Origin: an uncultured virus (IMG/VR IMGVR_UViG_3300043435_001124) | Taxonomy: Duplodnaviria; Heunggongvirae; Uroviricota; Caudoviricetes | IMG/VR virus record: IMGVR_UViG_3300043435_001124 | Strand: one strand, 5' to 3' | Length of the DNA: 64,000 nt | Shown: positions 1 to 63,429 of the stretch, in pieces | Layout of the letters: the number at the start of each line of letters is the position of its first letter | Position numbering within the stretch: the stretch's first letter is position 1 | Position numbers and translations under genes: made by a program | The notes under the pieces: model-generated | Databases searched by the model: none | The model's input: the letters and a program-made list of their open reading frames with translations, nothing else | Told to the model about the DNA's origin: nothing

Positions 1-93
1 GTTGACTTCATTGTTGAAGCATTGACAGATAAACTATCTGATGATTCTGGGTGGTGTGTAAGTGATTATGATTATGAGGTTGTGACAGAATAA
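1..93 (+). CDS. 3' end of a small hypothetical protein (partial; ...VDFIVEALTDKLSDDSGWCVSDYDYEVVTE*)
   Basis: Frame 1 is open from the window start; TAA at 91-93 lies inside repeat copy 1. Confidence 0.7.
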   Translation, partial: VDFIVEALTDKLSDDSGWCVSDYDYEVVTE

Positions 94-165
94 GAACTGG
101 CACAACAGACCTAGGCAAGTCTCTAAACTGCTGCTATGATAAACAAGTCACACCAAAGACAACAA
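81..165 (+). promoter_or_regulatory. Cassette element copy 1
   Basis: TGTGACAG-AATAAGAA-CTGGCACA (81-104); TGcTATGAT with -10 at 135; leader AAGTCACACCAAAGACAACAA-ATG. Confidence 0.8.
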
Positions 166-321
166 ATGGATCCTTACACTCAAAGGTATCAAATCGAGGA
201 ACTATCTCGTTTTGATCTTGTGGAGCAACTTGAGAATGATCCTTATCTTCGTGATGATGATGAAGATGGATACGATGATGCTTCATTCAACGAATCACTT
301 AACTCTGGGCATGATTTCTGA
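166..321 (+). CDS. Small acidic hypothetical protein (51 aa, MDPYTQRYQIEELSRF...)
   Basis: ATG at 166 directly follows the repeat leader; the track start at 136 lies inside the -10 box. Confidence 0.75.
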   Translation: MDPYTQRYQIEELSRFDLVEQLENDPYLRDDDEDGYDDASFNESLNSGHDF

Positions 322-506
322 TGATTGAAACTTACAACTTCACTGGTGATACGGTTACTTTTTTGGGTTTGATTGGTGTAGTTTCTACGGGTATCATTAT
401 TGTTACTGCATTCCGTAGATTTTTTAACTCACCAATGAACCTACGTGTGCCAGTTTCCAAAGTGGCACACGATCTCACACAGGACCCTGAAAATCCTGTA
501 TCTTAA
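321..506 (+). CDS. Small membrane protein (61 aa)
   Basis: Coupled TGA/ATG overlap with the previous gene; hydrophobic stretch FLGLIGVVSTGIIIVTAF; reads through copy 2 and stops at its TAA. Confidence 0.7.
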   Translation: MIETYNFTGDTVTFLGLIGVVSTGIIIVTAFRRFFNSPMNLRVPVSKVAHDLTQDPENPVS

Positions 507-529
507 GTAAGTCAACCAAAGGCAAACCA
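446..529 (+). promoter_or_regulatory. Cassette element copy 2
   Basis: TGTGCCAG-TTTCCAAA-GTGGCACA (446-469); TATCTT at 499; near-identical to copy 3. Confidence 0.85.
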
Positions 530-682
530 ATGACTACCACTGACACCAATCAATTCACTGCCCGCGAGATTGCGGCACTTCTCATGATCTTTAATCAACT
601 TAGTTCTTATGAGGTTCAGGAAATTACTGGTTTAGATGTTGGTGAAGTATCCGAACTTAATTACAAACTACTGGGCATGTAA
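530..682 (+). CDS. Hypothetical protein (50 aa, MTTTDTNQFTAREIAALL...)
   Basis: Hand-translated; ATG follows the repeat leader; TAA at 680-682; below the ORF-track cutoff. Confidence 0.75.
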   Translation: MTTTDTNQFTAREIAALLMIFNQLSSYEVQEITGLDVGEVSELNYKLLGM

Positions 683-712
683 AATCTAGTCGAGACTACA
701 ATCTCGTCGAGA

Positions 713-796
713 TGTGCCAGTTTCCAAAGTGGCACGAGATCTCACACAAGACCCTGAAGATCTGTTATCTTAAGTAAGTCAACCAAAGGCAAACCA
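713..796 (+). promoter_or_regulatory. Cassette element copy 3
   Basis: TGTGCCAG-TTTCCAAA-GTGGCACG; near-identity with copy 2 continues into the first six codons. Confidence 0.85.
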
Positions 797-949
797 ATGA
801 CTACCACTGACACCATTAAAGAGTTCTTTACTGAAGATGAGTGGGATATGATTTACAACTTCATTGGTCATGCTTTGGATAATGAGGATTATGATCCAGA
901 GCAAGTGTTCACCATTCGCTCTAAGATTCATAATCTGTATAAAGACTAA
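797..949 (+). CDS. Hypothetical protein (50 aa, MTTTDTIKEFFTEDEWDMIYNFIG...)
   Basis: Hand-translated; ATG follows the repeat leader; TAA at 947-949. Confidence 0.75.
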   Translation: MTTTDTIKEFFTEDEWDMIYNFIGHALDNEDYDPEQVFTIRSKIHNLYKD

Positions 950-957
950 CCTTATAA

Positions 958-988
958 GCATCCTGAGGTAAGATGTAAAACTGCCTCA
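958..988 (+). other. Predicted H-type RNA pseudoknot upstream of the KTSC-like gene
   Basis: GCATC (958-962) pairs with GATGT (972-976); TGAGGTA (964-970) pairs with TGCCTCA (982-988). Confidence 0.55.
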
Positions 989-1014
989 AACAAACCCTTT
1001 TTTTTATTATTATC

Positions 1015-1251
1015 ATGAACTTCACTTTTACTGAGCAACAATCTTCCTGCATCGCTTCTGTTGATGTCGAAGGTCAAGAAGTTAGCATCACTTTTCAGGG
1101 CAATCTGAATAATGTTTACACTTTCGTCACTGAAAGTGAGGACGTGATTGTTAACTACCTTGAAAGTCCTACCGGTTCGATTGGTCAAACCTACCGCCGT
1201 TGGGTTGCTGAGCGTATGCTCATCCCCACGACTGAACTAGTGGCAGCGTGA
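1015..1251 (+). CDS. KTSC-domain-like small protein (78 aa)
   Basis: SSCIASV...ITF...VYTF...SIGQTY pattern resembles KTSC domains; the TGA is supplied by copy 4. Confidence 0.6.
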   Translation: MNFTFTEQQSSCIASVDVEGQEVSITFQGNLNNVYTFVTESEDVIVNYLESPTGSIGQTYRRWVAERMLIPTTELVAA

Positions 1252-1334
1252 CACTCTGACAACTGGCACAAGGGGGACACGGTTCCCCCTTCGGACCCCT
1301 TAAGATTACAGAGTCAACCAAACCACTTCAAACC
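1247..1334 (+). promoter_or_regulatory. Cassette element copy 4
   Basis: CGTGACAC-TCTGACAA-CTGGCACA, AGGGGGA-CACGGT-TCCCCCT hairpin, TAAGAT at 1301, GAGTCAACC leader. Confidence 0.85.
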
Positions 1335-1652
1335 ATGCGTAAGATCGAAACCCTGATGAACGCAGCAATCCTTAACCGTAAGGATTGGTCCCTTGATAAT
1401 ACTCGTGTTGAGTATGAAGAGGGTAACGAAGTTTCCCGAGTTTACCTTCACGGTCATAAGATTGCCGAGATTGGTGAAGGTTTCATTACTATTCATCATT
1501 GCGGTTGGAAGACTAAAACAACTAAGTCTCGCCTTAATGCTCTCCTTCGGGAGAATGGTAAGGGTGATGAATCTGTCTATCAGAAAAATCACACTTGGTT
1601 TATTGCTTATGATGGTAAGATTGAAGAGTTTGATTCTGCTGTGACACTCTGA
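1335..1652 (+). CDS. Hypothetical phage protein (105 aa)
   Basis: ORF track; bounded by copies 4 and 5. Confidence 0.85.
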   Translation: MRKIETLMNAAILNRKDWSLDNTRVEYEEGNEVSRVYLHGHKIAEIGEGFITIHHCGWKTKTTKSRLNALLRENGKGDESVYQKNHTWFIAYDGKIEEFDSAVTL

Positions 1653-1731
1653 CAACTGGCACAAGGGGGACTCGGTTCCCCCTTTGGACCGACTAGGATT
1701 AAAGAGTCAACCAAAGACACACCCAACCACC
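1640..1731 (+). promoter_or_regulatory. Cassette element copy 5
   Basis: TGTGACAC-TCTGACAA-CTGGCACA, G5/C5 hairpin, TAGGAT at 1694. Confidence 0.85.
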
Positions 1732-1926
1732 ATGGAAGTTTTCCTCTGCGCTGATGCTGCCGGTCGCTATTGCTGGATACGAGGTTCATCGATTGATCAA
1801 ATCGAAGACGCTGGTTTAGAAGTTGTTGAGTGCCAGACTTCAGATTTTGAGGGTGATTCTGCAGGTACAATGACCCTCGAAGATCTGAAAGAATCTGATG
1901 CAATTCTATTCGAAGGAGGCAACTAA
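1732..1926 (+). CDS. Small acidic hypothetical protein (64 aa, MEVFLCADAAGRYCW...)
   Basis: ATG at 1732 follows the leader; the track start at 1684 is inside the repeat. Confidence 0.8.
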   Translation: MEVFLCADAAGRYCWIRGSSIDQIEDAGLEVVECQTSDFEGDSAGTMTLEDLKESDAILFEGGN

Positions 1927-1942
1927 TTCATTACATCAACTT

Positions 1943-1967
1943 GGAGGCAATCATGCCTCCTTTTTTT
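1943..1967 (+). terminator. Rho-independent terminator
   Basis: GGAGGCA-ATCA-TGCCTCC followed by T7. Confidence 0.85.
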
Positions 1968-2058
1968 ATACTTTTTATCTTACTATTTGAGAGGTGCTTC
2001 AGTGGCGATGGATTGATCAAGCAGATACCCCTCTGCTGTCTTTGCTGATTGTCCCCTT

Positions 2059-2194
2059 ATCCTACAGCATCATCAGACCCATAAGGTCACCAAGGTGGAC
2101 AGTCTGACAACTGGCACATAAGATCGCCACGACCCCTGATTTTCTGTTATCTTAAATCTTGTGAGGGATGTGTCTCCCCCCTCATCAGAAAACA
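2059..2194. promoter_or_regulatory. Cassette element copy 6, apparently bidirectional
   Basis: GTGGACAG-TCTGACAA-CTGGCACA (2095-2118); + strand TGtTATCTT 29 nt downstream; - strand TAGGAT (2064-2059) 30 nt away on the other side. Confidence 0.65.
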
Positions 2195-2521
2195 ATGTTT
2201 ACCGCATCTTTTCCTCCCGTTGACGATCTGATCAGTGTACTTTCAAAGATCGAGTACAAAAAACACTTTTACAATCTGATCAATGTTTGTATTGTTTTTG
2301 TTGCTGTTTCTGTTGCTGTTGTTTCCTTCATTTGCACAAAGATTGCACAATGGTATAAGAATGGTGGTAAAGATCTTATTCAAAAAACATATGCACAAGT
2401 TAAAGACTTATGCATCATTTGTTATCTTTGGATTCGCTGCGAAGGTTATCCTGAACTGGTAAGATTCTCTGATGATGTAAAGCAAACCTATCAGAACTGG
2501 CAATACCTTGTGACAGTCTGA
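2195..2521 (+). CDS. Hypothetical membrane protein (108 aa, MFTASFPPVDDLISVL...)
   Basis: Hydrophobic helix VCIVFVAVSVAVVSFIC; TGA inside copy 7. Confidence 0.8.
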   Translation: MFTASFPPVDDLISVLSKIEYKKHFYNLINVCIVFVAVSVAVVSFICTKIAQWYKNGGKDLIQKTYAQVKDLCIICYLWIRCEGYPELVRFSDDVKQTYQNWQYLVTV

Positions 2522-2590
2522 TCAGTGGCACAAGGGGTGCTCTGGATGCCTCTGGATGCCTTATAATAGTTTCATACACACAGAGAACTG
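2509..2590 (+). promoter_or_regulatory. Cassette element copy 7
   Basis: TGTGACAG-TCTGATCA-GTGGCACA; consensus TATAAT at 2562, 29 nt downstream. Confidence 0.85.
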
Positions 2591-2791
2591 ATGGCACAGA
2601 AAATTAAAACTCCACCCATTACCCCTTGTGCAAGATGTGGTGCAAAAGCAAAATGTATTGAAGATTGGGATTTTCGTGATATGTGGAAGGTGATTTGTGA
2701 TAATAACCACACATCAACCAAAGATTGTGGCACAAAACATCGTGCGGTATGCCGTTGGAATAATGCCCAAATAAAACTCCAAGACACTTGA
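2591..2791 (+). CDS. Lar-like (restriction alleviation family) Zn-ribbon protein (66 aa)
   Basis: PCARCG...VIC...CGTKHRAVCRWN resembles the PCPxCG...C...AxxxWN pattern of Lar-family proteins. Confidence 0.55.
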   Translation: MAQKIKTPPITPCARCGAKAKCIEDWDFRDMWKVICDNNHTSTKDCGTKHRAVCRWNNAQIKLQDT

Positions 2792-2867
2792 AGAACCGGC
2801 ACAAGGGGGACACGGTTCCCCCTCCTGACCGACTAGGATTAAAGAGTCAACACCGCACACGAGACCA
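2780..2867 (+). promoter_or_regulatory. Cassette element copy 8
   Basis: CAAGACAC-TTGAAGAA-CCGGCACA, hairpin, TAGGAT at 2834, leader GAGTCAACACCGCACACGAGACCA. Confidence 0.85.
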
Positions 2868-3122
2868 ATGAACTTCTCCGATCTGAACTTCTTCGATCAC
2901 AGTGTAGTCAAAGGTGGCACTCGCGCAGAGTACACTTTCCGGAACTATTGGACCATTAGTGTAGTTGCGGGTCCGAAGGATTCTGGACTCAAAGGTGACA
3001 TTCAGCACGACACTTTCGAGGTTGGTGTAATGCGCCCGAATGGCAATATGTTGGAAGATGTCATCATCTGGCAGACCCCGGTTCAGATCACCACGATGAT
3101 GCATCTGATCGAGATGCTGTGA
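2868..3122 (+). CDS. Hypothetical phage protein (84 aa)
   Basis: ORF track; TGA is in the left arm of copy 9. Confidence 0.85.
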   Translation: MNFSDLNFFDHSVVKGGTRAEYTFRNYWTISVVAGPKDSGLKGDIQHDTFEVGVMRPNGNMLEDVIIWQTPVQITTMMHLIEML

Positions 3123-3206
3123 CAATCTAGCAACCGGCACAAGGGGGACACGGTTCCCCCCTCCTGACCGACTAGGATTAAAGAGTCAACACCGCACACG
3201 AGACCA
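3118..3206 (+). promoter_or_regulatory. Cassette element copy 9
   Basis: TGTGACAA-TCTAGCAA-CCGGCACA; downstream part nearly identical to copy 8. Confidence 0.85.
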
Positions 3207-3395
3207 ATGAACACCATCGAGATCATTGACGGTCAGACTTTCACCGTCACCATCCTGCCCACTGCGAAACCAAAGCGTAGCGAACTCGTATGCTCCCGCG
3301 TCGGTGGCGCAAAAACCCGATTTTATGCTGCCACTGGCGCCGGTCGCAATTCTCGAGAAGTTGAGAAACGGATCCCCGCTGCCGGGACAGTCTGA
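3207..3395 (+). CDS. Small basic hypothetical protein (62 aa)
   Basis: ORF track; TGA in the spacer of copy 10. Confidence 0.8.
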   Translation: MNTIEIIDGQTFTVTILPTAKPKRSELVCSRVGGAKTRFYAATGAGRNSREVEKRIPAAGTV

Positions 3396-3468
3396 CAACT
3401 GGTTCGGGGGACTCACGGGTCCCCCTCCTGACCGACTAGGATTAAAGAGTCAACACCGACACCGACCG
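3383..3468 (+). promoter_or_regulatory. Cassette element copy 10
   Basis: Degenerate palindrome CGGGACAG-TCTGACAA-CTGGTTCG, GGGGGAC-TCACGG-GTCCCCC hairpin, TAGGAT at 3437. Confidence 0.85.
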
Positions 3469-3726
3469 ATGCTCAACTTCTCCGCTCTGACCCGCATCGC
3501 AGTCCGCAGCGTTCTCATTCAACAGGGACCGCAAACATGTAGCGATCTCGTGCGCATTATGGGTATGGATCCGAAGCGTCACAAAGGTACAATCCATGCC
3601 GTAATGGTAGACATGGAAGATGATGGTATTCTCACCGCGACCCGTTCTAGTAATGGCAAGCGCAATCAGTGGTCAATTGTTAACATCCGCAAGCGCGATC
3701 GTCTCGCCGCTGCCCTGATCGGGTGA
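3469..3726 (+). CDS. Winged-helix DNA-binding protein (85 aa, MLNFSALTRIAVRSVL...)
   Basis: GPQTCSDLVRIMG...KGTIHAVMVDMEDDGIL...NQWSI is a wHTH pattern; the true start follows the leader (the track ORF starting at 3226 is over-extended). Confidence 0.65.
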   Translation: MLNFSALTRIAVRSVLIQQGPQTCSDLVRIMGMDPKRHKGTIHAVMVDMEDDGILTATRSSNGKRNQWSIVNIRKRDRLAAALIG

Positions 3727-3790
3727 CAATCTAGCAACTGGCACAAGGGGGAGAATCCCTCCCCCATTCTTTACACTCTCTAAAACGATC
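3722..3790 (+). promoter_or_regulatory. Cassette element copy 11 (variant type B)
   Basis: GGTGACAA-TCTAGCAA-CTGGCACA, GGGGGAG-AATCC-CTCCCCC hairpin, ATTC..TACACT..AAAACG leader shared with copy 18. Confidence 0.75.
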
Positions 3791-3922
3791 ATGTTTTCAA
3801 TCCGTTACCAAACTCCGTACAATGCTTGCGAGTGGAGAACACAAACATTCTCCACTCTAGATGATGCTCTGCGCATGGTAGACTTCTATCGTTCCTGCGG
3901 TTCCCCTGCTCACCTTATCTGA
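3791..3922 (+). CDS. Hypothetical protein (43 aa, MFSIRYQTPYNACEWRTQTFSTLDDALRMVDFYRSCGSPAHLI)
   Basis: Hand-translated; follows the copy 11 leader. Confidence 0.75.
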   Translation: MFSIRYQTPYNACEWRTQTFSTLDDALRMVDFYRSCGSPAHLI

Positions 3923-3927
3923 TCATC

Positions 3928-4077
3928 ATGGCAATTACTATTCAGGACAATTCCGAAGAGTTTAATGTAGTCTGGGAGAATGACATTCCTACACTGTCTC
4001 CGATAGATTACTCACTTAGTTGTGAGCAATTTGCCGCGATGATGGAGTGTACGGTAGATGATCTCTGGGCGATGTGA
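3928..4077 (+). CDS. Small acidic hypothetical protein (49 aa, MAITIQDNSEEFNVVW...)
   Basis: Hand-translated; TGA is in the left arm of copy 12. Confidence 0.7.
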   Translation: MAITIQDNSEEFNVVWENDIPTLSPIDYSLSCEQFAAMMECTVDDLWAM

Positions 4078-4159
4078 CAATCTAGCAACTGGCACGGGGG
4101 ACTCACGGTTCCCCCTCCTGACCGACTAGGATTACAGAGTCAACACCGCACACGAGACC
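4073..4159 (+). promoter_or_regulatory. Cassette element copy 12
   Basis: TGTGACAA-TCTAGCAA-CTGGCACG, hairpin, TAGGAT at 4127, GAGTCAACACCGCACACGAGACC leader. Confidence 0.85.
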
Positions 4160-4333
4160 ATGACCCGCCTCTCCGTCATCTGCCCCGCTGCCACCTGGGA
4201 GAACGAAACCACCGATGCCGATCGCGCATGGGATCTCTGCCTGGATCTCTCGCAGGATTATGGGTACGCTGAGGTTCGCCAGAACGGCATGATCATCGGA
4301 TCCTACCGGAACGGATCCCCTGCGATCTGGTGA
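4160..4333 (+). CDS. Hypothetical protein (57 aa, MTRLSVICPAATWENETTDADRAWDLCLDLS...)
   Basis: Hand-translated; its TGA begins copy 13. Confidence 0.8.
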   Translation: MTRLSVICPAATWENETTDADRAWDLCLDLSQDYGYAEVRQNGMIIGSYRNGSPAIW

Positions 4334-4408
4334 TTCTGCCGGGGGGACTCACGGTCCCCCCTCTGACCCGCTAGACTTACCGAGTCAACACCGCACCCGA
4401 GACCGATC
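4331..4408 (+). promoter_or_regulatory. Cassette element copy 13 (palindrome-less subtype)
   Basis: TGATTC..GGGGGGAC-TCACG-GTCCCCCC..TAGACT..GAGTCAACACCGCACCCGAGACC. Confidence 0.8.
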
Positions 4409-4582
4409 ATGATTCTATCACAAGCATCCCGCCTCTCTGACCGCGCCACCGTCTGGGTCGCTCGCAAGAATGACGATTCTACGTTTAATCCGCTCACGAC
4501 CGATTATGGTGTTCCCGCTACTGCATTAGCAGCGCAGTTCGCCGATGCATTCTCGAACGAAGTGATCTCACCGATAATCTGA
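4409..4582 (+). CDS. Hypothetical protein (57 aa, MILSQASRLSDRATVWVARK...)
   Basis: Hand-translated; its TGA begins copy 14. Confidence 0.75.
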   Translation: MILSQASRLSDRATVWVARKNDDSTFNPLTTDYGVPATALAAQFADAFSNEVISPII

Positions 4583-4654
4583 ATCCTGCTGGGGGACTCA
4601 CGGGTCCCCCGGATCCGTGCTACAATTCCAGAGTCAACACCGCACACGAGACCG
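4580..4654 (+). promoter_or_regulatory. Cassette element copy 14
   Basis: TGAATCC, G5/C5 hairpin, TGcTACAAT extended -10 (4621), conserved leader. Confidence 0.85.
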
Positions 4655-4870
4655 ATGACCGCTTCCACCATCACCCCTGCCGCCCTCACCCCCGAGGTTC
4701 TTCTCCTGATCGCGGAGTCATTCAAGGTCGTTGCATACGATCCCAAAAGTGCTGAGGGTATCCGTGCCATGCACAAAACCGAATTGGGGCAGGAAGTTCT
4801 TCGCAGGATCGTCAGAGATGACATAGGGGGAGCGGCGAGCATCATCGCTAACGCGTTATGGGTTGATTGA
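4655..4870 (+). CDS. Hypothetical protein (71 aa, MTASTITPAALTPE...)
   Basis: ORF track; bounded by copies 14 and 15. Confidence 0.8.
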   Translation: MTASTITPAALTPEVLLLIAESFKVVAYDPKSAEGIRAMHKTELGQEVLRRIVRDDIGGAASIIANALWVD

Positions 4871-4944
4871 ATCCAGCAAGGGGGGACTCACGGGTCCCCC
4901 TCCTGACCGACTAGGATTAAAGAGTCAACACCGCACACGACACA
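4868..4944 (+). promoter_or_regulatory. Cassette element copy 15
   Basis: TGAATCCAGC 5' end (as in copies 16/17) joined to a TCCTGACCGACTAGGATTAAAGAGTC 3' part (as in copies 8-10). Confidence 0.85.
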
Positions 4945-5133
4945 ATGAACAGCGCCACCCTTCCGCAGATTCTACAAAACGCGGCAGACGATAGTGATAC
5001 AATCTCCTGGCATCTTGCCTACGAGGTTGCTAAAGACCACTGCTGCCTGAATGACTTTCGTTCAGAGTACGGAACTACCGCGAAGTTCGGGCGAGTAGAT
5101 CTAGGCGAACTGCTGGTGTGGTTAGGATACTGA
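4945..5133 (+). CDS. Hypothetical protein (62 aa)
   Basis: ORF track; bounded by copies 15 and 16. Confidence 0.8.
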   Translation: MNSATLPQILQNAADDSDTISWHLAYEVAKDHCCLNDFRSEYGTTAKFGRVDLGELLVWLGY

Positions 5134-5207
5134 ATCCAGCGAGGGGGGACTCACGGTCCCCCCGGATCCGTGCTACAATTCCAGAGTCAACACCGCACCC
5201 GAGACCG
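5131..5207 (+). promoter_or_regulatory. Cassette element copy 16
   Basis: Near-identical to copy 17; TGcTACAAT -10. Confidence 0.85.
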
Positions 5208-5465
5208 ATGACCGCTTCCACCATCACCCCGACCCCGCTCAAGACCATTCTCACCCCGGACCGTTACCCGTTTGCCGTTGCTAAGGTTGTGGATGGCAGA
5301 ATCGCCTGCACTATTGCTTATGCTCGCACTCTGGAAGATGTTTACAATCAGTGCCAGGGATGGCGGGCATCCGATGCTCATTACAACTTCCGTCATGAGT
5401 ACATCATGGCAGAGCAGCGGGATCTAGACAATACCCCGAACTATTCCTACTGGGTCGCAGTCTGA
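5208..5465 (+). CDS. Hypothetical protein (85 aa, MTASTITPTPLKTILTPDRYPF...)
   Basis: ATG follows the leader; the track start at 5118 is over-extended through the repeat. Confidence 0.8.
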   Translation: MTASTITPTPLKTILTPDRYPFAVAKVVDGRIACTIAYARTLEDVYNQCQGWRASDAHYNFRHEYIMAEQRDLDNTPNYSYWVAV

Positions 5466-5539
5466 ATCCAGCGAGGGGGGACTCACGGTCCCCCCGGATC
5501 CGTGCTACAATTCCAGAGTCAACACCGCACACGAGACCG
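5463..5539 (+). promoter_or_regulatory. Cassette element copy 17
   Basis: Near-identical to copy 16. Confidence 0.85.
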
Positions 5540-5716
5540 ATGACCTTCGATCAGATCCTCGCTCACTGCCAGCAATCCGGTTATATCCTCACGGGTTCTT
5601 CTCGTGAGGGTTATGTAGTTGACGGTTTGAAGAATAGGTTTGGCAAGACCTATTCCGTAGACCTTATCAATTCCCGTAGTTTGTGGAGTTGGGCGATGGA
5701 AACCTTCGACGCCTGA
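5540..5716 (+). CDS. Hypothetical protein (58 aa, MTFDQILAHCQQSGYILTG...)
   Basis: Hand-translated; its TGA begins copy 18. Confidence 0.75.
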   Translation: MTFDQILAHCQQSGYILTGSSREGYVVDGLKNRFGKTYSVDLINSRSLWSWAMETFDA

Positions 5717-5777
5717 TGTAATCGGGGGAGGCGCAATCCTCCCCCATTCAGTACACTGTTCTCAAAACGTTCTCATC
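5714..5777 (+). promoter_or_regulatory. Cassette element copy 18 (variant type B)
   Basis: GGGGGAGG-CGCAAT-CCTCCCCC hairpin, then ATTC..TACACT..AAAACG as in copy 11. Confidence 0.7.
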
Positions 5778-6080
5778 ATGTCTATCGCCATCACCACCAA
5801 CTTCGTTCCCCGCGATCTCATCTCGGCGTTTGAACTTAACGGCGCACAGTATACCAAACTCCGTAAAGAGTTTGACTACATGAATGACGCAGACTTCGAT
5901 TCTGCGATGTTCTTCAAGTACCGGGGGCAAGTGTATGCTCTGGCGGAGTTTCTTCGGACAGAGGGTGATCTACTGGCGCAGGGTTGGCAAGGTATCTGTA
6001 ACCAAACCTATTTCAGCGGTTTGGTCGTTAAGATTGTGCAATCGTGTGAGTCCGTTGTAGTCGGTAGGTATTGCGTCTGA
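5778..6080 (+). CDS. Hypothetical phage protein (100 aa), last gene of the array
   Basis: ORF track; follows copy 18. Confidence 0.85.
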   Translation: MSIAITTNFVPRDLISAFELNGAQYTKLRKEFDYMNDADFDSAMFFKYRGQVYALAEFLRTEGDLLAQGWQGICNQTYFSGLVVKIVQSCESVVVGRYCV

Positions 6081-6085
6081 GTTAC

Positions 6086-6128
6086 ACATAGTGGGTGCTG
6101 AGTTCGTTACACTTAGCACCCACTATGT
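6086..6128. terminator. 18-bp stem-loop closing the array (terminator or RNA-processing site)
   Basis: ACATAGTGGGTGCTGAGT-TCGTTAC-ACTTAGCACCCACTATGT with one G-U pair; no clear U-tail. Confidence 0.6.
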
Positions 6129-6334
6129 TCGTGCTTAAGTACAGTCATTAGTCGTGCTTATGGACAGTGTTTTTAATGATAAGCGATCCTTATGGGCGGC
6201 GCCATGCCGATAAAAATCGATGGGTCCCTGTAACCTACAAATCTTAAGAAACGCGATAGTTATATAAGACTCTCACAAAAAATGCTATAATATTCTAAGG
6301 CACACAAAAAATCCCAGACGAAAAAAAAATCAAA

Positions 6335-6517
6335 GTGAATTACCCCGCCTCTCAAAAAAACCGCGCCCAAAAAAATTCACCAAAAACCCCCTATTGGAAT
6401 TTTTGGAAGGTTGTATTTGCTGGGTGGTTAATTCGTTACCCAGGTAAGGTTTTCCGTATTATTGGAGTACCTCTGGGGTTTTTATTGGTGATGATATATA
6501 ATGCGTTGACAAAATAA
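6335..6517 (+). CDS. Small membrane hypothetical protein
   Basis: ORF track (GTG start); hydrophobic C-terminus; TGcTATAAT at 6283-6291 upstream. Confidence 0.55.
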   Translation: MNYPASQKNRAQKNSPKTPYWNFWKVVFAGWLIRYPGKVFRIIGVPLGFLLVMIYNALTK

Positions 6518-6522
6518 AATAT

Positions 6523-6708
6523 ATGTCTCAAACAATATATCACATATATGCTCGTGGTCAATGCATTTACCATTCACTTAAAGAGGATGATTTTACAACA
6601 ACCTGGGTTGCACTAAATCGCCTCTCAGATCTTCTATCAAATTCTAAAGAACTATCGTACGAAGAAGTAACTTTAGATAAGGAATTAATGTTAAGTTCCT
6701 CGTATTGA
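6523..6708 (+). CDS. Hypothetical protein (61 aa)
   Basis: ORF track; tightly packed on the + strand. Confidence 0.7.
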   Translation: MSQTIYHIYARGQCIYHSLKEDDFTTTWVALNRLSDLLSNSKELSYEEVTLDKELMLSSSY

Positions 6709-6733
6709 CAAAATCTAAATAGAACGCTAAAAT
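6705..6733 (+). promoter_or_regulatory. Sigma70-type promoter
   Basis: TTGACA-N17-TAAAAT; the spacer also contains a TAAATA late motif. Confidence 0.75.
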
Positions 6734-6757
6734 TGACTTGAGGTTTAAATAAAACTT

Positions 6758-7540
6758 ATGGCTAAAGGTTTCACCGTAAAAGCAGCAGCACCAACTCCCA
6801 AGACTGAAGATTGGGATTATGATGCAATCAAAAATAGAATGAAAGGAAAATCAATTGTTTTCTGCCTTCCAGGTAGAGGGTGTTCTTTTACATTTCTCAA
6901 AGCATTTGTTCAATTATGTTTTGATTTAGTTCAAAATGGAATGAGTATTCAGATTTCTCAAGACTACTCATCAATGGTTAATTTCGCACGTTGTAAAGTT
7001 TTAGGAGCAAATGTTCTTCGTGGTCCCAAGCAAATTCCTTGGGATGGAAAACTTAATTATGATTATCAACTTTGGATTGACTCTGATATTGTTTTCAATA
7101 CAGAAAAGTTTTGGCAACTTTGTGATATGGCATTAACAGAACCTGATGAAGAGGGTAATGTGAAAGAGAAAGAAATTGTTGCCGGTTGGTATGCTACTGA
7201 AGATGGTCACACAACCTCAGTAGCACACTGGTTAGAAGAAGATGACTTCCGTAAGAACGGTGGAGTGATGAATCATGAAAATGTTGAATCAATTGGTAAG
7301 CGTCGCAAACCTTTCACAGTTGATTACACTGGATTTGGTTGGGTACTCATTAAGCACGGAGTCTTTGAGAATCTTGAATATCCATGGTTTGCTCCAAAGA
7401 TGCAAGTCTTTGAGTCTGGTGCAGTTCAGGATATGTGTGGTGAAGACGTTTCATTCTGTCTTGATGCAATTGAAAAAGGATTTGAAATCTGGTGTGATCC
7501 ACGTATTCGTGTAGGTCATGAAAAAACTCGTATTATTTGA
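6758..7540 (+). CDS. GT-A/family-2-like glycosyltransferase, conserved cyanophage protein
   Basis: WIDSDIVF (DxD), TGFGWVLIK, GEDVSFC and VGHEK motifs. Confidence 0.7.
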   Translation: MAKGFTVKAAAPTPKTEDWDYDAIKNRMKGKSIVFCLPGRGCSFTFLKAFVQLCFDLVQNGMSIQISQDYSSMVNFARCKVLGANVLRGPKQIPWDGKLNYDYQLWIDSDIVFNTEKFWQLCDMALTEPDEEGNVKEKEIVAGWYATEDGHTTSVAHWLEEDDFRKNGGVMNHENVESIGKRRKPFTVDYTGFGWVLIKHGVFENLEYPWFAPKMQVFESGAVQDMCGEDVSFCLDAIEKGFEIWCDPRIRVGHEKTRII

Positions 7541-7556
7541 TTGGAGATTTTAAACT

Positions 7557-7697
7557 ATGGCAAAAAGACCAAATCTAAGTTCAGATCAAATTGAATCTAA
7601 ACCCAAGTCTACCCGTCAGGGTCTTGGAAAGCATACAAAATATGCTTCAACTTCTCGGAATAAGGCAAGAAAAAAATACCGAGGTCAAGGAAAATAA
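7557..7697 (+). CDS. Small very basic protein (46 aa, MAKRPNL...KKYRGQGK)
   Basis: Hand-translated; GGAG upstream; terminator downstream. Confidence 0.75.
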   Translation: MAKRPNLSSDQIESKPKSTRQGLGKHTKYASTSRNKARKKYRGQGK

Positions 7698-7706
7698 TTC
7701 TCATTC

Positions 7707-7730
7707 ATCCGCTTTATAGGCGGATTTTTT
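7707..7730 (+). terminator. Rho-independent terminator
   Basis: ATCCGCTT-TAT-AGGCGGAT followed by a T run. Confidence 0.75.
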
Positions 7731-7831
7731 ATGTCTTGCATTTTTTATAGATAGATAACAATTGAATTTCTTTCTATGGGGATAGAAACCCCCTTAAAAG
7801 TTCTGATTTTAATTAAATCAGGAGACACACA

Positions 7832-8044
7832 ATGTCAGATAGAAATGTAAATTTTATGAGACAAACTTGGGGAGCGGATCATTTGGATAAAAAAATGCTC
7901 CGTGAAATTAATAATGATTTATTGACACCTAAAAAACATGATTTTCAAATTCAAAATGAACTTCATGAAAAAATTCGCAATGATGAAGATTATGATGATT
8001 GGGAATATGGAACAGAACCTCTTTATGAAGGTAAAAAAAGTTGA
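7832..8044 (+). CDS. Hypothetical protein (70 aa)
   Basis: ORF track; AGGAG SD upstream. Confidence 0.75.
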   Translation: MSDRNVNFMRQTWGADHLDKKMLREINNDLLTPKKHDFQIQNELHEKIRNDEDYDDWEYGTEPLYEGKKS

Positions 8045-8051
8045 ATAAATA
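8045..8051 (+). promoter_or_regulatory. T4-type late promoter
   Basis: ATAAATA upstream of gp25. The TAAATA motif also occurs at 22312, 34401, 35880, 39793, 42935, 44636, 44861, 45822, 48610, 49631 and 57655, each just upstream of a gene. Confidence 0.75.
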
Positions 8052-8073
8052 ATACAGATTTATCTGTATTATT

Positions 8074-8475
8074 ATGCCTCTAGAGAGGATAAGTAAGGGA
8101 TTTAAAGATATAAGTATGACATTTCAGGTTAATCCTCTGAACTATGATCTTATTGGTCTTAAAAATGAATCTGCAATTGCACGTTCAGTAAGAAACCTTG
8201 TATTTACTCTGCCCGGAGAACGATTTTTTAATGAAAATTTGGGTTCTAAAGTAAGTCGTTCTCTTTTTGAAAATATGGATGAGATTTCAGCATCAGTTAT
8301 TCAAGATGAAATAAAAAATACTATTAATAATTACGAACCAAGAGTCAATCTAATTGATGTAGTTGTTTCTCCAAATTATGATGAAAATGAATTTAATGTT
8401 ACTATAAATTACAGAATTGTTGGGATTGATGTTCTTCCTCAACAATTATCATTCGCTCTTCAGTCAACACGATAA
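8074..8475 (+). CDS. gp25: Baseplate wedge subunit gp25
   Basis: GERFF...GS...LFE...YEPRV motif; synteny. Confidence 0.92.
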   Translation: MPLERISKGFKDISMTFQVNPLNYDLIGLKNESAIARSVRNLVFTLPGERFFNENLGSKVSRSLFENMDEISASVIQDEIKNTINNYEPRVNLIDVVVSPNYDENEFNVTINYRIVGIDVLPQQLSFALQSTR

Positions 8476-10385
8476 TGGCATTAGTAAATTTTACAAATTT
8501 AGATTTTGATCAAATAAAATCCTCCATTCGCGAGTATCTTAGGGCGAACTCCAATTTTACGGACTATGATTTTGAAGGATCTAACCTATCAATTATAATT
8601 GATACTCTCGCATATAATACTTACATATCCTCATATAATGCTAATATGATTAGCAATGAGGTGTTTATTGATGGCGCTACTCTTCGCGAGAACGTAGTAT
8701 CTCTTGCAAGAAACATTGGATACGTTCCTCATTCCCGTTCAGCATCCAAAGCAAACATTACATTTTTTATAGACACAACTCAATTTACAACTAATCCTCT
8801 CACATTAACTCTTAAGAGTGGGGTTGTTGCTACTACAAGTACTAGTTTTGGTAATCAAAATTTTTCCTTCATCATTCCTCAAGATATAACTGTTCCGGTA
8901 ATAAATGGAATTGCATTATTTGAAAATGTAGATATTTACGAAGGAACATTTATTGTTAATAATTTCAATGTAGATGCAAATAATCCAAATCAAAAATTTA
9001 TTTTAGAAAATGCTAATATTGATATAGATTCAATCAATGTCTTCGTAAGGGACACACAATTATCTACTGTTAAAAATTCTTTTAAATTATCTAAGAATTT
9101 ATTTGATATAAGTTCAGAATCAAAAGTATTTTTTATTCAAGAAATTGAAGATCAGAGATATGAATTAATTTTTGGTGATGGAATTTTTGGTAAGAAATTA
9201 AACAATTTAAATTACATTGAGGTTTCTTATAATATTACAAATGGAGAAAGTGCAAATGGAGCATCTTCATTCAACTTCAATGGGAGAATTGTTGATAACA
9301 ATAATAGAGTTGTAACAACTGGCATTTCACTTATTACTACAAATTCATCTTCACAAAATGGAAGAGAAATAGAATCTGTAGAATCTATTAGAAAATATGC
9401 TCCAAGAAAGTATTCATCACAAAATCGTGCTGTCACAGCAACTGATTACGAAACCATAATACCTACGATTTATTCGGAAGCAGAATCAATATCAGTCTTT
9501 GGTGGAGAAGATTTAAATCCACCAAAGTATGGTAGGGTGTTTATTAGTATTAAACCAATCAATGGACCATTTGTTTCTAATCAAATAAAGGATAATATTA
9601 AAAGTTCTTTAAGAAGATACTCCGTAGCAGGAATTGTTCCTGAAATTATTGATCTAAAATATCTTTATCTTGAAACAGATACCACTGCATATTATAATTC
9701 AAATTCAACTTTTGAGGCAAACACTATCAAGGATGTTATTTTATCTAACATTAGAAATTATACAAACTCAAAAGAACTTAATAAGTATGGAGCAAGATTT
9801 AAATATAGCAAATATTTAAAAATTATTGACGATTCAAATAGTGCAGTTACCTCAAACATTACTAAAGTTATAATGAGACGTGATTTGGGTGTAGTATTGA
9901 ATACATTTGCAGACTATGAAATTTGCTATGGCAATCAATTTCACATTAAAACCCAAAGTGGGTATAATATTAAATCTTCTGGATTCAATATAGCGGGAGT
10001 TAATGAAACACTTTATTTGACAGACATCCCAAACTCTAATGGATTAACTGGCACTATTTTCTTTTTTAAATTGCAATCAAGTACACAACCAGTAATTGTA
10101 AAAAGAAATGTTGGTATAATTGATTATGTTAAAGGTGAAATAAAATTATATCCAGTTAATATAATTTCAACCTCAAAATCATCATTTTCTAGACCAATAA
10201 TTGAAATATCAGTTATTCCAAAATCGAATGATGTAATTGGATTGCAAGATTTATATTTACAACTAGATATTAATAACATTACGTTAAATATGTTATCAGA
10301 TGAGATTTCTTCAGGTTCAGATATATCTGGATCTTCTTATAAATTTACATCAAGTTACACTAACGGAGACCTCGTAAGAATATAA
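8475..10385 (+). CDS. gp6: Baseplate wedge subunit gp6
   Basis: LDFDQIK...FTDYDFEGS and QNRAVTATDY motifs. Confidence 0.93.
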   Translation: MALVNFTNLDFDQIKSSIREYLRANSNFTDYDFEGSNLSIIIDTLAYNTYISSYNANMISNEVFIDGATLRENVVSLARNIGYVPHSRSASKANITFFIDTTQFTTNPLTLTLKSGVVATTSTSFGNQNFSFIIPQDITVPVINGIALFENVDIYEGTFIVNNFNVDANNPNQKFILENANIDIDSINVFVRDTQLSTVKNSFKLSKNLFDISSESKVFFIQEIEDQRYELIFGDGIFGKKLNNLNYIEVSYNITNGESANGASSFNFNGRIVDNNNRVVTTGISLITTNSSSQNGREIESVESIRKYAPRKYSSQNRAVTATDYETIIPTIYSEAESISVFGGEDLNPPKYGRVFISIKPINGPFVSNQIKDNIKSSLRRYSVAGIVPEIIDLKYLYLETDTTAYYNSNSTFEANTIKDVILSNIRNYTNSKELNKYGARFKYSKYLKIIDDSNSAVTSNITKVIMRRDLGVVLNTFADYEICYGNQFHIKTQSGYNIKSSGFNIAGVNETLYLTDIPNSNGLTGTIFFFKLQSSTQPVIVKRNVGIIDYVKGEIKLYPVNIISTSKSSFSRPIIEISVIPKSNDVIGLQDLYLQLDINNITLNMLSDEISSGSDISGSSYKFTSSYTNGDLVRI

Positions 10386-10389
10386 TAAC

Positions 10390-13300
10390 ATGAGAAAAAC
10401 CAGAATCAAAATCAGTTCAATCATTCAAAATCAACTTCCAGAGTTTGTTAAAGAAGAGTTTCCTCTTGTTTCTGAATTTTTATCACAATATTATATTTCA
10501 TTAGAAAGTGATGGACACACTAGTGATATACTTCAAAATATTGATCAATATATTAAAGTTGATAACTTAGCAAATTTAATTGAATCAACTAAATTATCAT
10601 CAAATGTAACATTTTTTGATACTACAATTAATGTTGATTCAACATTAGGATTTCCGGATTCATATGGACTTATTTTAATAGATTCTGAGATTATTACATA
10701 TACCTCAAAAACGTCTACATCTTTTGAAGGGTGCATTCGTGGTTTCGATGGAACTACATCATACGAAATTAAGGATCAGTTAAGTTTTTCTGAAACACAA
10801 GTAGAAGAACATATCTTATCCACAAAAGTATCTAACTTAAGTATTCTTTTTCTTAAAGAATTTTTCAAGAAAGTTAAAAAGCAAATTACCCCAGGATTTG
10901 AAGAAAGAGAATTATATGTTGATTTAGATGAAAGACTTTTTGTAAAGCAATCTATTGATTTTTATTCTTCAAAAGGAACTGACAATTCCTTTAAAATTTT
11001 ATTTGGTGCATTATATGGACAAAATGTTGAAGTCATTAGACCTAGAGATTATTTAATTCAACCATCTAGCGCACAATATAGAATCACTTCTGATTTAGTT
11101 GTAGAAAAAATCGAAGGGAATCCTGAAGATCTTGTAAATACAACTCTCTACCAAGATGAAACTGAAAATATAAACAGAGCACAGGGAACTATAACTAATG
11201 TTGAAAAAATTAGAAGAGAATCTAAAGATTATTATGTTATAAGTTTAGATTCGGATTATGATAAAGATATACAACCAAGCGGAAGTGTTTATGGAAAATT
11301 TCAAATACACCCAAAAACACGAATAGTATCAGTATCTTCAGTAATTTCTGGATCAACAACACTAGAAGTAGACTCTACCGTAGCATTTCCAAATTCAAAT
11401 GGGAACTTAATTATTGATCTTGATAATGGAACATCTTTAAATGTTACTTATGCGTCAAAAACACTAAATCAATTTTTAGATTGTATTGGAATTACTCAAG
11501 ACATTCCTTCAGCAACAGAAGTCAAATCAGATTTCTTTGTATATGGATATTCTAACGAAGAGATAGTAAAAATTAGAATTCTTGGTGTTTTATCCGATTT
11601 ACCGATACCTGATAATACTCTTTTTTATTCAAAAGGAGATATTGTAAAAATAAAAACTTTAGGTATTGATAGTAAAGATGTTAAAGCAAATAATTGGTTT
11701 TTCAATATTCCGGTAAAATACTCAGTTTCCGGAATTTCAACTTTAGATAATGCTGCTGAAGGTTCATACACCTTTACTGTGCCTGATAATCATTCTTTTA
11801 GATTAGGAGATTCAATATCTTTAATTCCCTCTTCAGGTGATCCACTGATTACAAATATTACTTCTATTAATGATGAAAAATCTTTTAGTGTTTTACTTGG
11901 ATCAAATCAAAATTTAAATATAAATCAAACATATATTGTTCAAAAAAATGTATCTAAAGTTCAGTTATCTAATACTGATAAAAACAAATATCCATCATTG
12001 AGTAAATATACTTCAAATGTTCAAAATGTTTATCTAGATCAAGATTCTTTATATGTTGCTTCACCATCACTTCCAACATATTTAAATATACCATTAAGCA
12101 TAAATGATGGTTCAATATCTTTTAGTGGAACTTTTTTACCAGATGATGCGGATAATTTAAACAAAGGTACTACTTTAGACATAGGTACACATAAGTTTTA
12201 TACTGGAGATTCAATTGTATATAAACCATCATTGGGAAATTCTTTAGGAATTTCAACGGGCGTTTATTTTATCAAAAGAATAAGTGGTACTGAAATAAAA
12301 TTGGCAAGAAGTAGGAATAATATTTTTACTGAAAATTTTATTTCTATAGATGCCGATGTTAAGAATGCTAAATTTGAACTTACAAAGTTTACTTACAATA
12401 ATCTAGATACACAAATACTTGAACCACAAAAATTAATTAGAAAAATTTCCAATCCAGAAATTGATGGAAAAATTTATGAAACTGTACCTGGATTAACTGG
12501 TATTTTTATTAATGGAGTAGAACTTCTTAATTATAAATCAACAGATAATGTTTTTTATGGTCCAATTGAAGATATTGTGGTATCTGCACCTGGTTCAGGG
12601 TATGACGTAATCAATCCCCCAATTTTATCAATTATAGATCCTAATGGATTTGGGGCTAATGGATATTGCTCGGTTATTGGTGGACTGGAGAGAATTGATA
12701 TCATAGATCCTGGGTTTGATTACCTTGAAGATCCTACGATTGATATTATCGGTGGTAATGGATCTGGAGCATCTGCAAAAGTAAATCTAGCAAGTTTTGA
12801 TCATAGTGTTTCTTTTAACTCAATTGGATCTGCAGGTTTAGTAAAATTAAATCCTACAAATACAATTGGGTTTTCTAGTTATCATAAGTTTAGAGATGCT
12901 GAAGAAGTAATTTACGTAACTGATGGACAATCACCTATTGTTGGCGGTATATCTACGATAGGTAATCTACCAACAAATTCAACGTATTTTGTCTCTGTTC
13001 AAGATGCGTATAACATAAAACTCCATAAGTCATTTGAAGATGCTGTTATTGGAATTAACACTATTCAATTGACTTCTTATGGAGTAGGAAATCATTCATT
13101 TAAATCTAAAAATAAAAAGAAAAAAATAGGATCAATCACTATTGAAAATAGTGGAATAAACTATCAAAACAAATTGGTTGCAACTAGTGCAAGTGGTATT
13201 AATACAGCATCAAACACTATTACAGTTTTAAATCATGGATATAATAGTGGTGAAGTTATTACATACAATCCCACCGAAACTGTTATAGGTGGATTATCAT

Positions 13301-51134: not shown

Positions 51135-51524
51135 ATGGAAGATGACTTTTATGCTTCAATTAAGTTAAAGACTGGAGAAGAGATATTTGCTCGTGTTCTC
51201 CCGTGTGATGAAGAAAATAAAATAACATTAATTGTTACAAATCCAATTATAATTACAAGTGTCAAAGGTCGTGGAGATTCCTCTGGTTACAAAATAGAAC
51301 CATGGATGAAAACAACAACTGAAGATATGTTTATAATTCATATGAATAATGTAATAACTATGACTGAAACAAACGATTTAGAGATAATTATGATACATCA
51401 ATCATTTGTAAGAAGAATTGAGGATATGAAAAATAACAGACATAGTGTATCACGTAAAATGGGATACATTGCAAATGTAAATGATGCTAAAGAACTATTA
51501 GAAAAGATTTATAACAACTCATAG
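51135..51524 (+). CDS. Conserved T4-like hypothetical protein (Sm-like fold candidate)
   Basis: IKLKTGEEI...PW; usual position between uvsW and gp55. Confidence 0.7.
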   Translation: MEDDFYASIKLKTGEEIFARVLPCDEENKITLIVTNPIIITSVKGRGDSSGYKIEPWMKTTTEDMFIIHMNNVITMTETNDLEIIMIHQSFVRRIEDMKNNRHSVSRKMGYIANVNDAKELLEKIYNNS

Positions 51525-63046: not shown

Positions 63047-63429
63047 CTTATGAGTTGAAAGATTGGTTGAATTCCATTAATTTTACTAAAGAAAATTTAA
63101 TGGAAGAAGATAAAACTTCAAAAAAAGATTATGCACCATATATCATTAATAAATGTTTGTCTGCACATATTGAATGCATTCTTTTTGCAAATGAAATGAA
63201 TATGAATCATTCATTAGACAAAGATATGCAATATTCATTTTATCTAAATACTTTGAGGAAACGGAAGAGATTTTCTCCCTGGATCCGTAAAGATAAAGTT
63301 CAAGATTTAGAGTATGTAAAACGTTACTATGGTTATAGTAATGATAAGGCAATTCAAGCTTTAAAAATTCTAAACAAAACTCAATTGAACTTCATAAAAC
63401 AACGACTTGAAACTGGCGGAATGAAATGA
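63043..63429 (+). CDS. gp62: Clamp loader small subunit gp62
   Basis: Y.PYIIN..LS...NEMN...RKRFS.W...YYGYS..KA. Confidence 0.9.
   Translation: MTYELKDWLNSINFTKENLMEEDKTSKKDYAPYIINKCLSAHIECILFANEMNMNHSLDKDMQYSFYLNTLRKRKRFSPWIRKDKVQDLEYVKRYYGYSNDKAIQALKILNKTQLNFIKQRLETGGMK

Follow-up and report, generated by a model that had tools for sequence, protein, structure and literature searches.

What allows a phage to line up some twenty small and unrelated genes behind near-identical intergenic sequences, and can such genes be exchanged one at a time without an integrase? This question is raised by the left end of a 64,000-nt stretch of DNA (the window), which is part of the genome of an uncultured Caudoviricetes virus (IMG/VR record IMGVR_UViG_3300043435_001124), and in which 21 micro-genes alternate with 18 copies of a repeated element. 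A first-pass annotation had described the locus as an integron-like array with a stop-promoter-leader element, and had compared it with the PeSL (promoter/stem-loop) cassettes of T4-type phages.

On balance, we think it probable that the array is a Kyanoviridae-type analogue of PeSL cassettes, in which one element combines per-gene expression signals with homology patches for recombination. The 5′ end of the element would provide stop codons in two frames for any upstream gene, and AGTCAAC, 5 nt past a −10-type hexamer, would be the putative transcription start. Each micro-gene would possess its own promoter and translation leader, and a hairpin would buffer it from its neighbour. The near-identical copies of 75–90 nt would be homology patches for the phage recombination proteins (UvsY, UvsW, gp46 and gp47), and exchange would require no dedicated integrase. 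A further-reaching form of this proposal, which we put forward only tentatively, is that a single 85-nt adaptor common to lake and sea Kyanoviridae passes a shared pool of micro-genes without an integrase, that the hairpin is the preferred crossover site, and that the displaced box and structured spacer represent an undescribed promoter design.

Anatomy and copies of the element

Each complete copy has the same parts in the same order, i.e., one or more stop codons for the upstream gene, the AACTGGCACA box, a G-rich/C-rich hairpin, a TAnnnT hexamer, 5 nt, AGTCAAC, a CA-rich leader and the ATG of the next gene. For the anatomy, no fewer than 164 distinct copies were collected from viral contigs, and 134 of them contain both boxes. 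The distance from the box to AGTCAAC is 41–43 nt in 130 of these 134 copies, although the hairpins span 18–28 nt. TAnnnT occupies its fixed place in 129 of them (most commonly as TATACT, 60 copies, followed by TATGAT, 16, TAAGAT, 13, and TACAAT, 11), and the ATG lies 17–25 nt from AGTCAAC in 126. Of 132 copies, 115 have the end of an upstream open reading frame (ORF) of at least 35 aa in their 5′ module, with preferred stop offsets (−7 in 41 copies, −15 in 24, −5 in 12 and −8 in 11) that represent two reading frames, and 27 of these 115 ORFs end in a V-T-[A/V/L] tail encoded by the element itself.

The hairpin begins 1–5 nt past the box. When 114 distinct spacers were folded, 105 reached −8 kcal/mol or lower and 101 showed z < −2, with a mean z of −3.6. 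The stem base has G on its 5′ side and C on its 3′ side, with G-C pairs dominating depths 0–3, and the deeper pairs vary among CG, GC, AT, TA and GT. The two conserved boxes are direct, not inverted, repeats of each other, and no GGAG-type Shine–Dalgarno (SD) sequence was found in the leaders read. An Rfam search of window 1–9000 at E ≤ 1 returned three chance-level matches, all far under their gathering scores.

A repeat search yielded families of 7 × 85 nt, 4 × 98 nt and 8 × 30 nt. In the 64-kb window, the core TAnnnT-N5-AGTCAAC has 13 matches, always on the + strand and between 499 and 5523, compared with 0.23 expected by chance, and none of 100 shuffles reached 13. A profile built from 15 copies matched solely 435–5538 at E ≤ 1, giving 11 matches at E ≤ 1e-14, four weak + strand matches and two weak reverse matches that fall on the palindromic hairpin. 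Neither the profile nor the core search found a copy in the remaining 58 kb, which contains the structural and replication genes. Reading of the intergenic regions gives 18 copies, 13 complete and five variant or partial. This agrees with the first-pass annotation, as does the placement of the copies, which start at the stop codon of one gene, end at the ATG of the next and thus abut both flanking genes. That annotation had also reported that the array runs off the left edge. The record G001, which contains window 1–6200 at 100% identity and was used for the sequence left of the window, indeed adds four complete copies to about −1440; beyond this point its genes are larger and have no copies between them, and a lone dispersed copy is found some 33 kb off, at position 77031 (one of ten pattern matches). 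The copies in the window are as follows, where G003 is a 5.6-kb relative:

84–135, + strand: partial element, a stop and the GAACTGGCACA box alone, followed by a short leader
446–529, + strand: complete element with TGGCAC, hairpin, TATCTT and AGTCAACC leader; overlaps the 3′ end of gene 321–506
713–796, + strand: complete element, 92% identity to 446–529
1243–1334, + strand: complete element, profile E 5e-20
1640–1731, + strand: complete element, profile E 7e-21
2098–2194, + strand: variant element with box and TATCTT, 3′ part divergent
2510–2590, + strand: variant element with box, hairpin and TATAAT, leader different
2780–2867, + strand: complete element, profile E 2e-20
3114–3206, + strand: complete element
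3385–3468, + strand: complete element
3723–3790, + strand: variant element with box, GGGGGAG..CTCCCCC hairpin, TACACT and another leader
4069–4159, + strand: complete element, profile E 1e-22
4325–4408, + strand: complete element, GC-rich 5′ variant
4574–4654, + strand: complete element with TGcTACAAT (extended −10-like)
4862–4944, + strand: complete element; in G003, two elements plus an additional 67-aa gene are found here, with the junction in the hairpin loop
5125–5207, + strand: complete element, 98.6% identity to G003
5457–5539, + strand: complete element
5717–5777, + strand: variant element with hairpin and TACACT, lacking the box

Cassette exchange among relatives

The closest view of exchange is provided by G003, whose anchor protein (the product of gene 6758–7540 in the window) is identical to that of the window. 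The elements of G003 and the window share 92–99% nucleotide identity, and seven successive genes show 97.5, 56, 84, 97, 87.5, 100 and 99.5%. In addition, G003 carries an extra cassette of 274 nt, consisting of one 67-aa gene and a second element, and the alignment puts the junction in the hairpin loop, such that the single element of the window corresponds to one G003 copy in its 5′ half and to the other in its 3′ half. Such a hybrid is the product expected of unequal exchange between neighbouring copies. In keeping with the gain and loss of cassettes suggested earlier, this pair differs by one whole cassette and by allele replacement cassette by cassette.

Gene order also differs among more distant loci. 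Shared cassette families are reordered in G002, G004, G005, L141 and L168; e.g., F20-F21-F06 in the window appears as F06-F21-F20 in G002, with F22 and F28 placed elsewhere. Across 57 non-overlapping loci with 158 elements, the 135 element-linked ORFs fall into 70 families, including 45 singletons. Family 0, the commonest (20 loci), has seven different predecessor families and four different successors, and families 2/7 and 8/9 are found in both orders. Compared by element profile and cassette order, relatives thus do not keep an identical gene order, as the first-pass annotation had anticipated for a shuffling platform. Contigs from four lake runs contain a G003-like form beside the window form, with the joints 4407→5113 (two runs) and 5550→5113 (two runs). 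These data are assembled contigs that break at repeats, and some joints cross-match copies (e.g., 1671→1); joints whose intervening sequence is not known were read solely where G003 explains them.

Distribution of the element family

The 164 or more distinct copies occur in uncultured viral contigs and represent 57 non-overlapping environmental loci; a spaced pattern allowing a gap of 37–44 nt retrieved 119 viral-contig stretches, mostly with a gap of 40–42 nt. Among 50,697 phage records, megablast with window 1–6200 gave no match, and blastn recovered a full-length copy from one phage alone, S-SRM01, a freshwater phage of Synechococcus (at 12569–12635 of L239). Direct reading revealed single copies in two marine phages, ahead of p068 in S-PM2 and ahead of a Kyano_Gp96-like gene in S-CAM1, and these three Synechococcus phages are the only cultured carriers found. 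S-PM2 contains about two copies in the 18 kb examined, compared with 18 in 6 kb of the window. Because copies span viral contigs as well as freshwater and marine cultured phages, the element family is, judged by this distribution, old and widespread in Kyanoviridae, and it appears to have been amplified in some lake lineages.

Term searches of Sullivan 2010 (PMC3037559) and of the papers on S-SRM01 (PMC8557907) and on pelagimyophages (PMC7029224) gave no description of the element. The promoter analyses of Mann 2005 (S-PM2), Dreher 2011 (S-CRM01) and Doron 2016 (Syn9) may cover part of the motif. With at least 164 copies, 57 loci and three cultured phages, the family provides a large natural data set with which to ask whether regulatory repeats drive the gain and loss of ORFans. 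S-SRM01 offers a cultured freshwater system for testing, and the element profile is a practical means of delimiting accessory micro-genes in viromes from lakes and seas.

Expression signals and alternative readings

Sigma-70-type −10 elements conserve T-A at positions 1–2 and T at position 6. The hexamer of the element conserves exactly these positions while its middle is variable, and one variant reads TGcTACAAT. The loci L046 and L049 possess their own 10–12-fold repeated units in the equivalent region, which are composed of a −35-position word, a 17-nt spacer and TATAGT. The word in L049 is AACTGG; in the window's element family, AACTGG stands 34 nt before the hexamer and looks as if it had been displaced by insertion of the hairpin into the spacer. 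The repeat units of L046, L049 and L052 (10 kb upstream of the anchor gene; 10–12, 10 and 3–4 copies, respectively) are genome-specific, which points to lineage-wise concerted evolution of the signals. The promoter, insulator and leader roles of the element are putative. The earlier description of it as a stop-promoter-leader element holds for the stop, the −10-like hexamer and the leader, but not for a canonical sigma-70 promoter. Two other readings of the motif were rejected. A sigma-54 reading of TGGCAC, judged by eye against the consensus, lacks a GC word at the −12 spacing, and cruciform extrusion restoring a 17-nt spacer would suit 18-nt hairpins, not those of 26–28 nt.

Several results weigh against the PeSL-analogue reading. 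With respect to expression, a consensus −35/−10 promoter scan did not flag any of the 13 complete copies, and some 33–34 nt, twice the normal spacer, separate the conserved box from the −10 downstream of it. A terminator scan left the hairpins of all 13 complete copies unflagged, and they have no T-run; it flagged 1943–1960 and 3747–3765, the former being the sole canonical hairpin + T7 terminator inside the array, and therefore the array may comprise at least two transcription blocks. RNAalifold on a 34-copy alignment returned zero pairs and no consensus structure because the hairpins are out of register; given this result, per-copy folding was used instead of a covariance model. The folding is equal on the two strands (50 copies on + vs. 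60 on −), without asymmetry, and therefore RNA-level and DNA-level roles are indistinguishable by this measure. With respect to exchange, just one crossover is base-resolved. Ends of homology blocks fall in elements in 306 of 727 cases vs. 107 expected, but these end points are not independent, and the enrichment is partly trivial because elements fill the intergenic space. A hairpin-word scan of metagenomes gave 12 stretches, 10 being chance hairpins and two real relatives, both of which show colinearity with the window, for 935 and 1858 nt. Among relatives located via the anchor gene, only three of 80 loci show an element match, and gene content varies without the element too, which makes turnover independent of this particular sequence.

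A first alternative is that the copies are simply the early promoters of the lineage, kept alike by selection for polymerase recognition, with gene turnover arising from other causes such as illegitimate recombination or the exchange of longer blocks; the elements would then coincide with gene borders and not bring about the exchanges. The small-gene regions of L046, L049 and L052, which have other repeats, and of the 77 loci lacking a match are also variable; the dispersed copy at position 77031 of G001 lies outside the array; and, since the intergenic space consists entirely of elements, a boundary where unlike genes meet must fall in them. However, the G003 junction lies within the hairpin and leaves the hybrid element that unequal homologous exchange predicts, elements that are 92–99% identical stand between adjacent cassettes of 56%, 84% and 97% identity, and some repeats reach into the first 6–11 codons of unrelated genes. 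We consider this alternative rather doubtful.

A second alternative, which we regard as unlikely, is that the array is transcribed as one polycistronic early transcript with a promoterless intercistronic RNA module, in which processed 3′ ends are stabilised or marked by the hairpin, cleavage takes place in the AU-containing stretch, and AGUCAACC together with the CA-rich leader forms a ribosome landing pad. This would suit the absence of a canonical −35 and of a terminator T-run, the strongly conserved SD-less leader at a fixed distance from the ATG, the hairpin whose structure is kept while its sequence varies, and the presence in the window of genes for a RegA-type translational regulator and an Sm-like protein. 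However, the hexamer keeps the sigma-70-type −10 positions in 129 of 134 copies, one variant carries TGn upstream of it, and relatives have units of −35 word, 17-nt spacer and TATAGT at equivalent places. Moreover, the opposite strand folds into hairpins just as well, and G-U-only pairs are thus not in excess.

Finally, it is highly improbable that the hairpin and flanking boxes form a recombination site whose folded DNA is recognised by a site-specific recombinase or nuclease of phage or host, i.e., a true integron-like system: the conserved structure with variable sequence in a fixed place between two conserved boxes, the crossover in the loop and the stem-loop-binding protein on which the PeSL authors speculate (PMC2839356, in its accessible part) would fit it, but no integrase or recombinase family is present among the 35 ORFs of at least 120 aa scanned in the window (itself part of the genome), the boxes are direct and thus do not pair as attC-like core sites would, and a promoter-like signal accompanies every cassette.

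Micro-genes of the array

The 21 ATG ORFs of the array, at window 136–6080, are all on the + strand and encode 43–108 aa (median 62). In a blastp comparison of 26 array proteins (21 from the window and five upstream in G001), no related pair was found at E ≤ 0.01, so the genes are mostly unrelated, as described at first pass. There is usually one gene per element copy, also as described, the exceptions being the pairs 136/321 and 3791/3928, which have one copy each, and an unrelated spacer at 950–1014. One of the 21 genes matches a Pfam family (Kyano_Gp96), and seven match PHROG families, all of unknown function. Mismatches between the window and G003 are in excess at third codon positions, and therefore the micro-ORFs look coding. 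The genes and neighbouring features are as follows:

1–93, + strand: 3′ end of a 79-aa array gene starting at about −146 in G001
136–321, + strand: micro-gene, 61 aa, no family
321–506, + strand: micro-gene, 61 aa, phrog_14199 (function unknown); an element copy supplies the final ~20 codons
530–682, + strand: micro-gene, 50 aa; first 6 codons in common with gene 797
797–949, + strand: micro-gene, 50 aa
1015–1251, + strand: micro-gene, 78 aa, phrog_4357 (function unknown)
1335–1652, + strand: gene, 105 aa, Pfam Kyano_Gp96 (E 6e-36); terminal V-T-L-stop encoded by the element
1732–1926, + strand: micro-gene, 64 aa; the canonical terminator 1943–1960 lies downstream
2195–2521, + strand: gene, 108 aa, alternative start at 2168, hydrophobic stretch
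2591–2791, + strand: micro-gene, 66 aa, Cys-rich; Lar-like as a lead only
2868–3122, + strand: micro-gene, 84 aa; G002 homologue in a different order
3207–3395, + strand: micro-gene, 62 aa, GC 0.56
3469–3726, + strand: micro-gene, 85 aa, weak winged-helix matches
3791–3922, + strand: micro-gene, 43 aa
3928–4077, + strand: micro-gene, 49 aa, 5 nt past the preceding gene with no intervening element
4160–4333, + strand: micro-gene, 57 aa, phrog_17176, GC 0.60; G005 homologue at the far left of the G005 array
4409–4582, + strand: micro-gene, 57 aa
4655–4870, + strand: micro-gene, 71 aa; 97.5% nucleotide identity to G003
4945–5133, + strand: micro-gene, 62 aa; G003 allele just 56% identical in nucleotides
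5208–5465, + strand: micro-gene, 85 aa; 84% identity to G003, mismatches per codon position 13/7/21
5540–5716, + strand: micro-gene, 58 aa; 97% identity to G003
5778–6080, + strand: last array gene, 100 aa, phrog_21085
6086–6128, no strand: palindrome with a 13-bp stem, closing the array
6758–7540, + strand: conserved 260-aa gene, phrog_1574; anchor for locating the equivalent region in relatives

The first-pass annotation had also proposed that the micro-genes serve host takeover or anti-defence. That proposal found no general support, its sole basis being one weak Lar-like lead, gene 2591–2791. This gene has 21 environmental homologues and an Atlas score of 0.93 to clusters in which 17–76% of members carry Pfam Lar_restr_allev; it gave no Pfam match itself, and two of the 21 homologues gave a non-significant one, with a best E of 0.07. 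Its product may be named as a candidate restriction-alleviation protein, as a lead only.

The repeats 446–553/713–820 and 4591–4688/5144–5241 reach into coding starts, and genes 4655 and 5208 have their first ~8–11 codons in common. This extension suggests crossovers beyond the element and chimeric micro-genes.

The array also stands out in composition, with a GC content of 0.48 vs. 0.33 in the rest of the window. The array genes in window 2868–6080 have GC 0.43–0.60, mostly above 0.49, and over the 57 loci the cassette ORFs range from 0.33 to 0.65, compared with a core GC of 0.33–0.42 in the carrier genomes. In G006 and G007, the element-bearing locus (L122 and L193) has GC 0.53 vs. 0.40–0.42 at the gp23 locus (L243 and L242). 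The GC-rich cassettes may owe their composition to a donor or to selection, e.g., host-like codon use for the first-expressed genes.

At the right border, the ~440 nt past the array (window 6081–6522) contain no convincing gene and have long A-runs; they are 97.6% identical to G003 with 32 gap columns. The G003 homologue of the last array gene (in L035, reverse strand) is 84 aa vs. 100 aa, with seven gap columns in the alignment, and its frame-naive translation contains X residues and stops, which may reflect a frameshift or masked letters.

The phage and its other genes

Pfam matches in the window include gp25, gp6, gp8, a neck protein, gp15, both terminase subunits (small and large), sheath, portal, prohead protease, scaffold, gp23, UvsY, UvsW, a gp55-like sigma factor, gp47, gp46, gp45, gp44, gp62 and RegA. 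The major capsid protein shares 76% identity with its counterpart in Synechococcus phage S-SCSM1, and the stretch is present in 24 lake-water metagenome runs. Based on this Pfam set, the capsid match, the Kyano_Gp96 array gene and the 24 lake runs, the window is assigned to a T4-type lake myovirus related to Kyanoviridae. The array itself occupies a hyperplastic small-gene region upstream of the gp25–gp6 baseplate genes. No match to psbA was found in G001 or G002, records that are 58% and 65% complete; being partial, they provide no evidence on the host in this respect.

Two giant ORFs of 3974 and 2604 aa (window 10390–22314 and 23901–31715) lie in the baseplate region and have YHYH and DUF4815 domain matches. 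A 354-aa ORF (window 61982–63046) between the clamp-loader genes gp44 and gp62 matches Pfam DruA, a Druantia protein, at E 3e-9. The Sm-like domain protein is encoded at window 51135–51524 and the RegA-type translational regulator at 63426–63869; either could act on the conserved SD-less leaders.

Comparison with known systems

The array is not an integron. It resembles one in being a one-strand row of short, unrelated and exchangeable genes, with a repeat whose structure is better kept than its sequence. However, we note three differences. First, the 35-ORF scan found no integrase in the window, in agreement with the first-pass annotation, and UvsY, UvsW, gp46 and gp47 are all present, as it had also stated. 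Second, there are no attC-type inverted core sites, and an attC-like reading was rejected since the boxes are direct repeats. Third, each cassette has its own promoter-like signal, whereas an integron relies on one Pc. The term integron-like can thus be kept as an analogy only.

T4 has many small early genes, and each of them is served by a strongly conserved promoter of its own. The array resembles such early promoters, and also morons, in that each small gene carries its own signal. The term moron denotes a gene that sits among other genes together with a promoter and a terminator for its own use (PMC2839356, accessible part). However, the conserved unit here spans the whole intergenic space, including stops and leader, and the element would be an exchange site, which is not claimed for morons.

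A small-ORFan block that can be lost spontaneously, the S-PM2 ‘ORFanage’, has been described in a cyanomyovirus (Puxty et al. 2015, PMC4503421); its place, upstream of the baseplate genes, is broadly that of the array. In its accessible part, this paper, the sole one on a cyanophage among 15 papers using the term ‘PeSLs’, judged the PeSL density of S-PM2 too low and argued against a PeSL mechanism for that phage.

The closest parallel is the PeSL itself. According to the accessible parts of Arbiol et al. 2010 (PMC2839356) and Comeau et al. 2014 (PMC4122927), a PeSL consists of an upstream stop codon, a sigma-70 promoter, a poly-G/poly-C stem-loop, an SD and a start; promoter and terminator activity and mini-circles have been demonstrated; and the proposal of PeSL shuffling was based on three T4-like phage pairs (RB49/phi1, T4/PST and KVP40/nt-1). 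Recombination between adjacent PeSLs was mapped once, in RB49, to the loop portion of that stem-loop (PMC2839356). The element described here likewise lies between small ORFan genes in a hyperplastic region and reaches from the upstream stop to the downstream start, with a promoter-like −10, a stem-loop formed by a G-run and a C-run, and no integrase. The copies are alike while the genes differ, close relatives (here one pair) differ by whole ORFs at the elements, and the crossover falls in the loop, as in RB49. The likeness to PeSLs put forward at first pass is thus upheld in its upstream stop, stem-loop, −10-like signal, downstream start and exchange behaviour.

While similar in these respects, the two differ in six ways. 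First, the present element belongs to a Kyanoviridae-type lake phage and is unrelated in sequence. Second, it has no TTGACA-type −35 at 17 nt. Third, it lacks an AT-rich upstream tract and has the box 33–34 nt upstream of the −10 instead. Fourth, in place of an SD it has the conserved AGTCAACC start and CA-rich leader. Fifth, its total length is tightly fixed and it has stops in two frames. Sixth, PeSL promoter and terminator activity and circles have been demonstrated, whereas the present element is known from sequence alone. The element family is thus separate from PeSLs in sequence and apparently analogous to them in its working, which would extend the PeSL idea from enterobacterial and vibrio T4-like phages to a distinct and far more regular Kyanoviridae-type family of elements.

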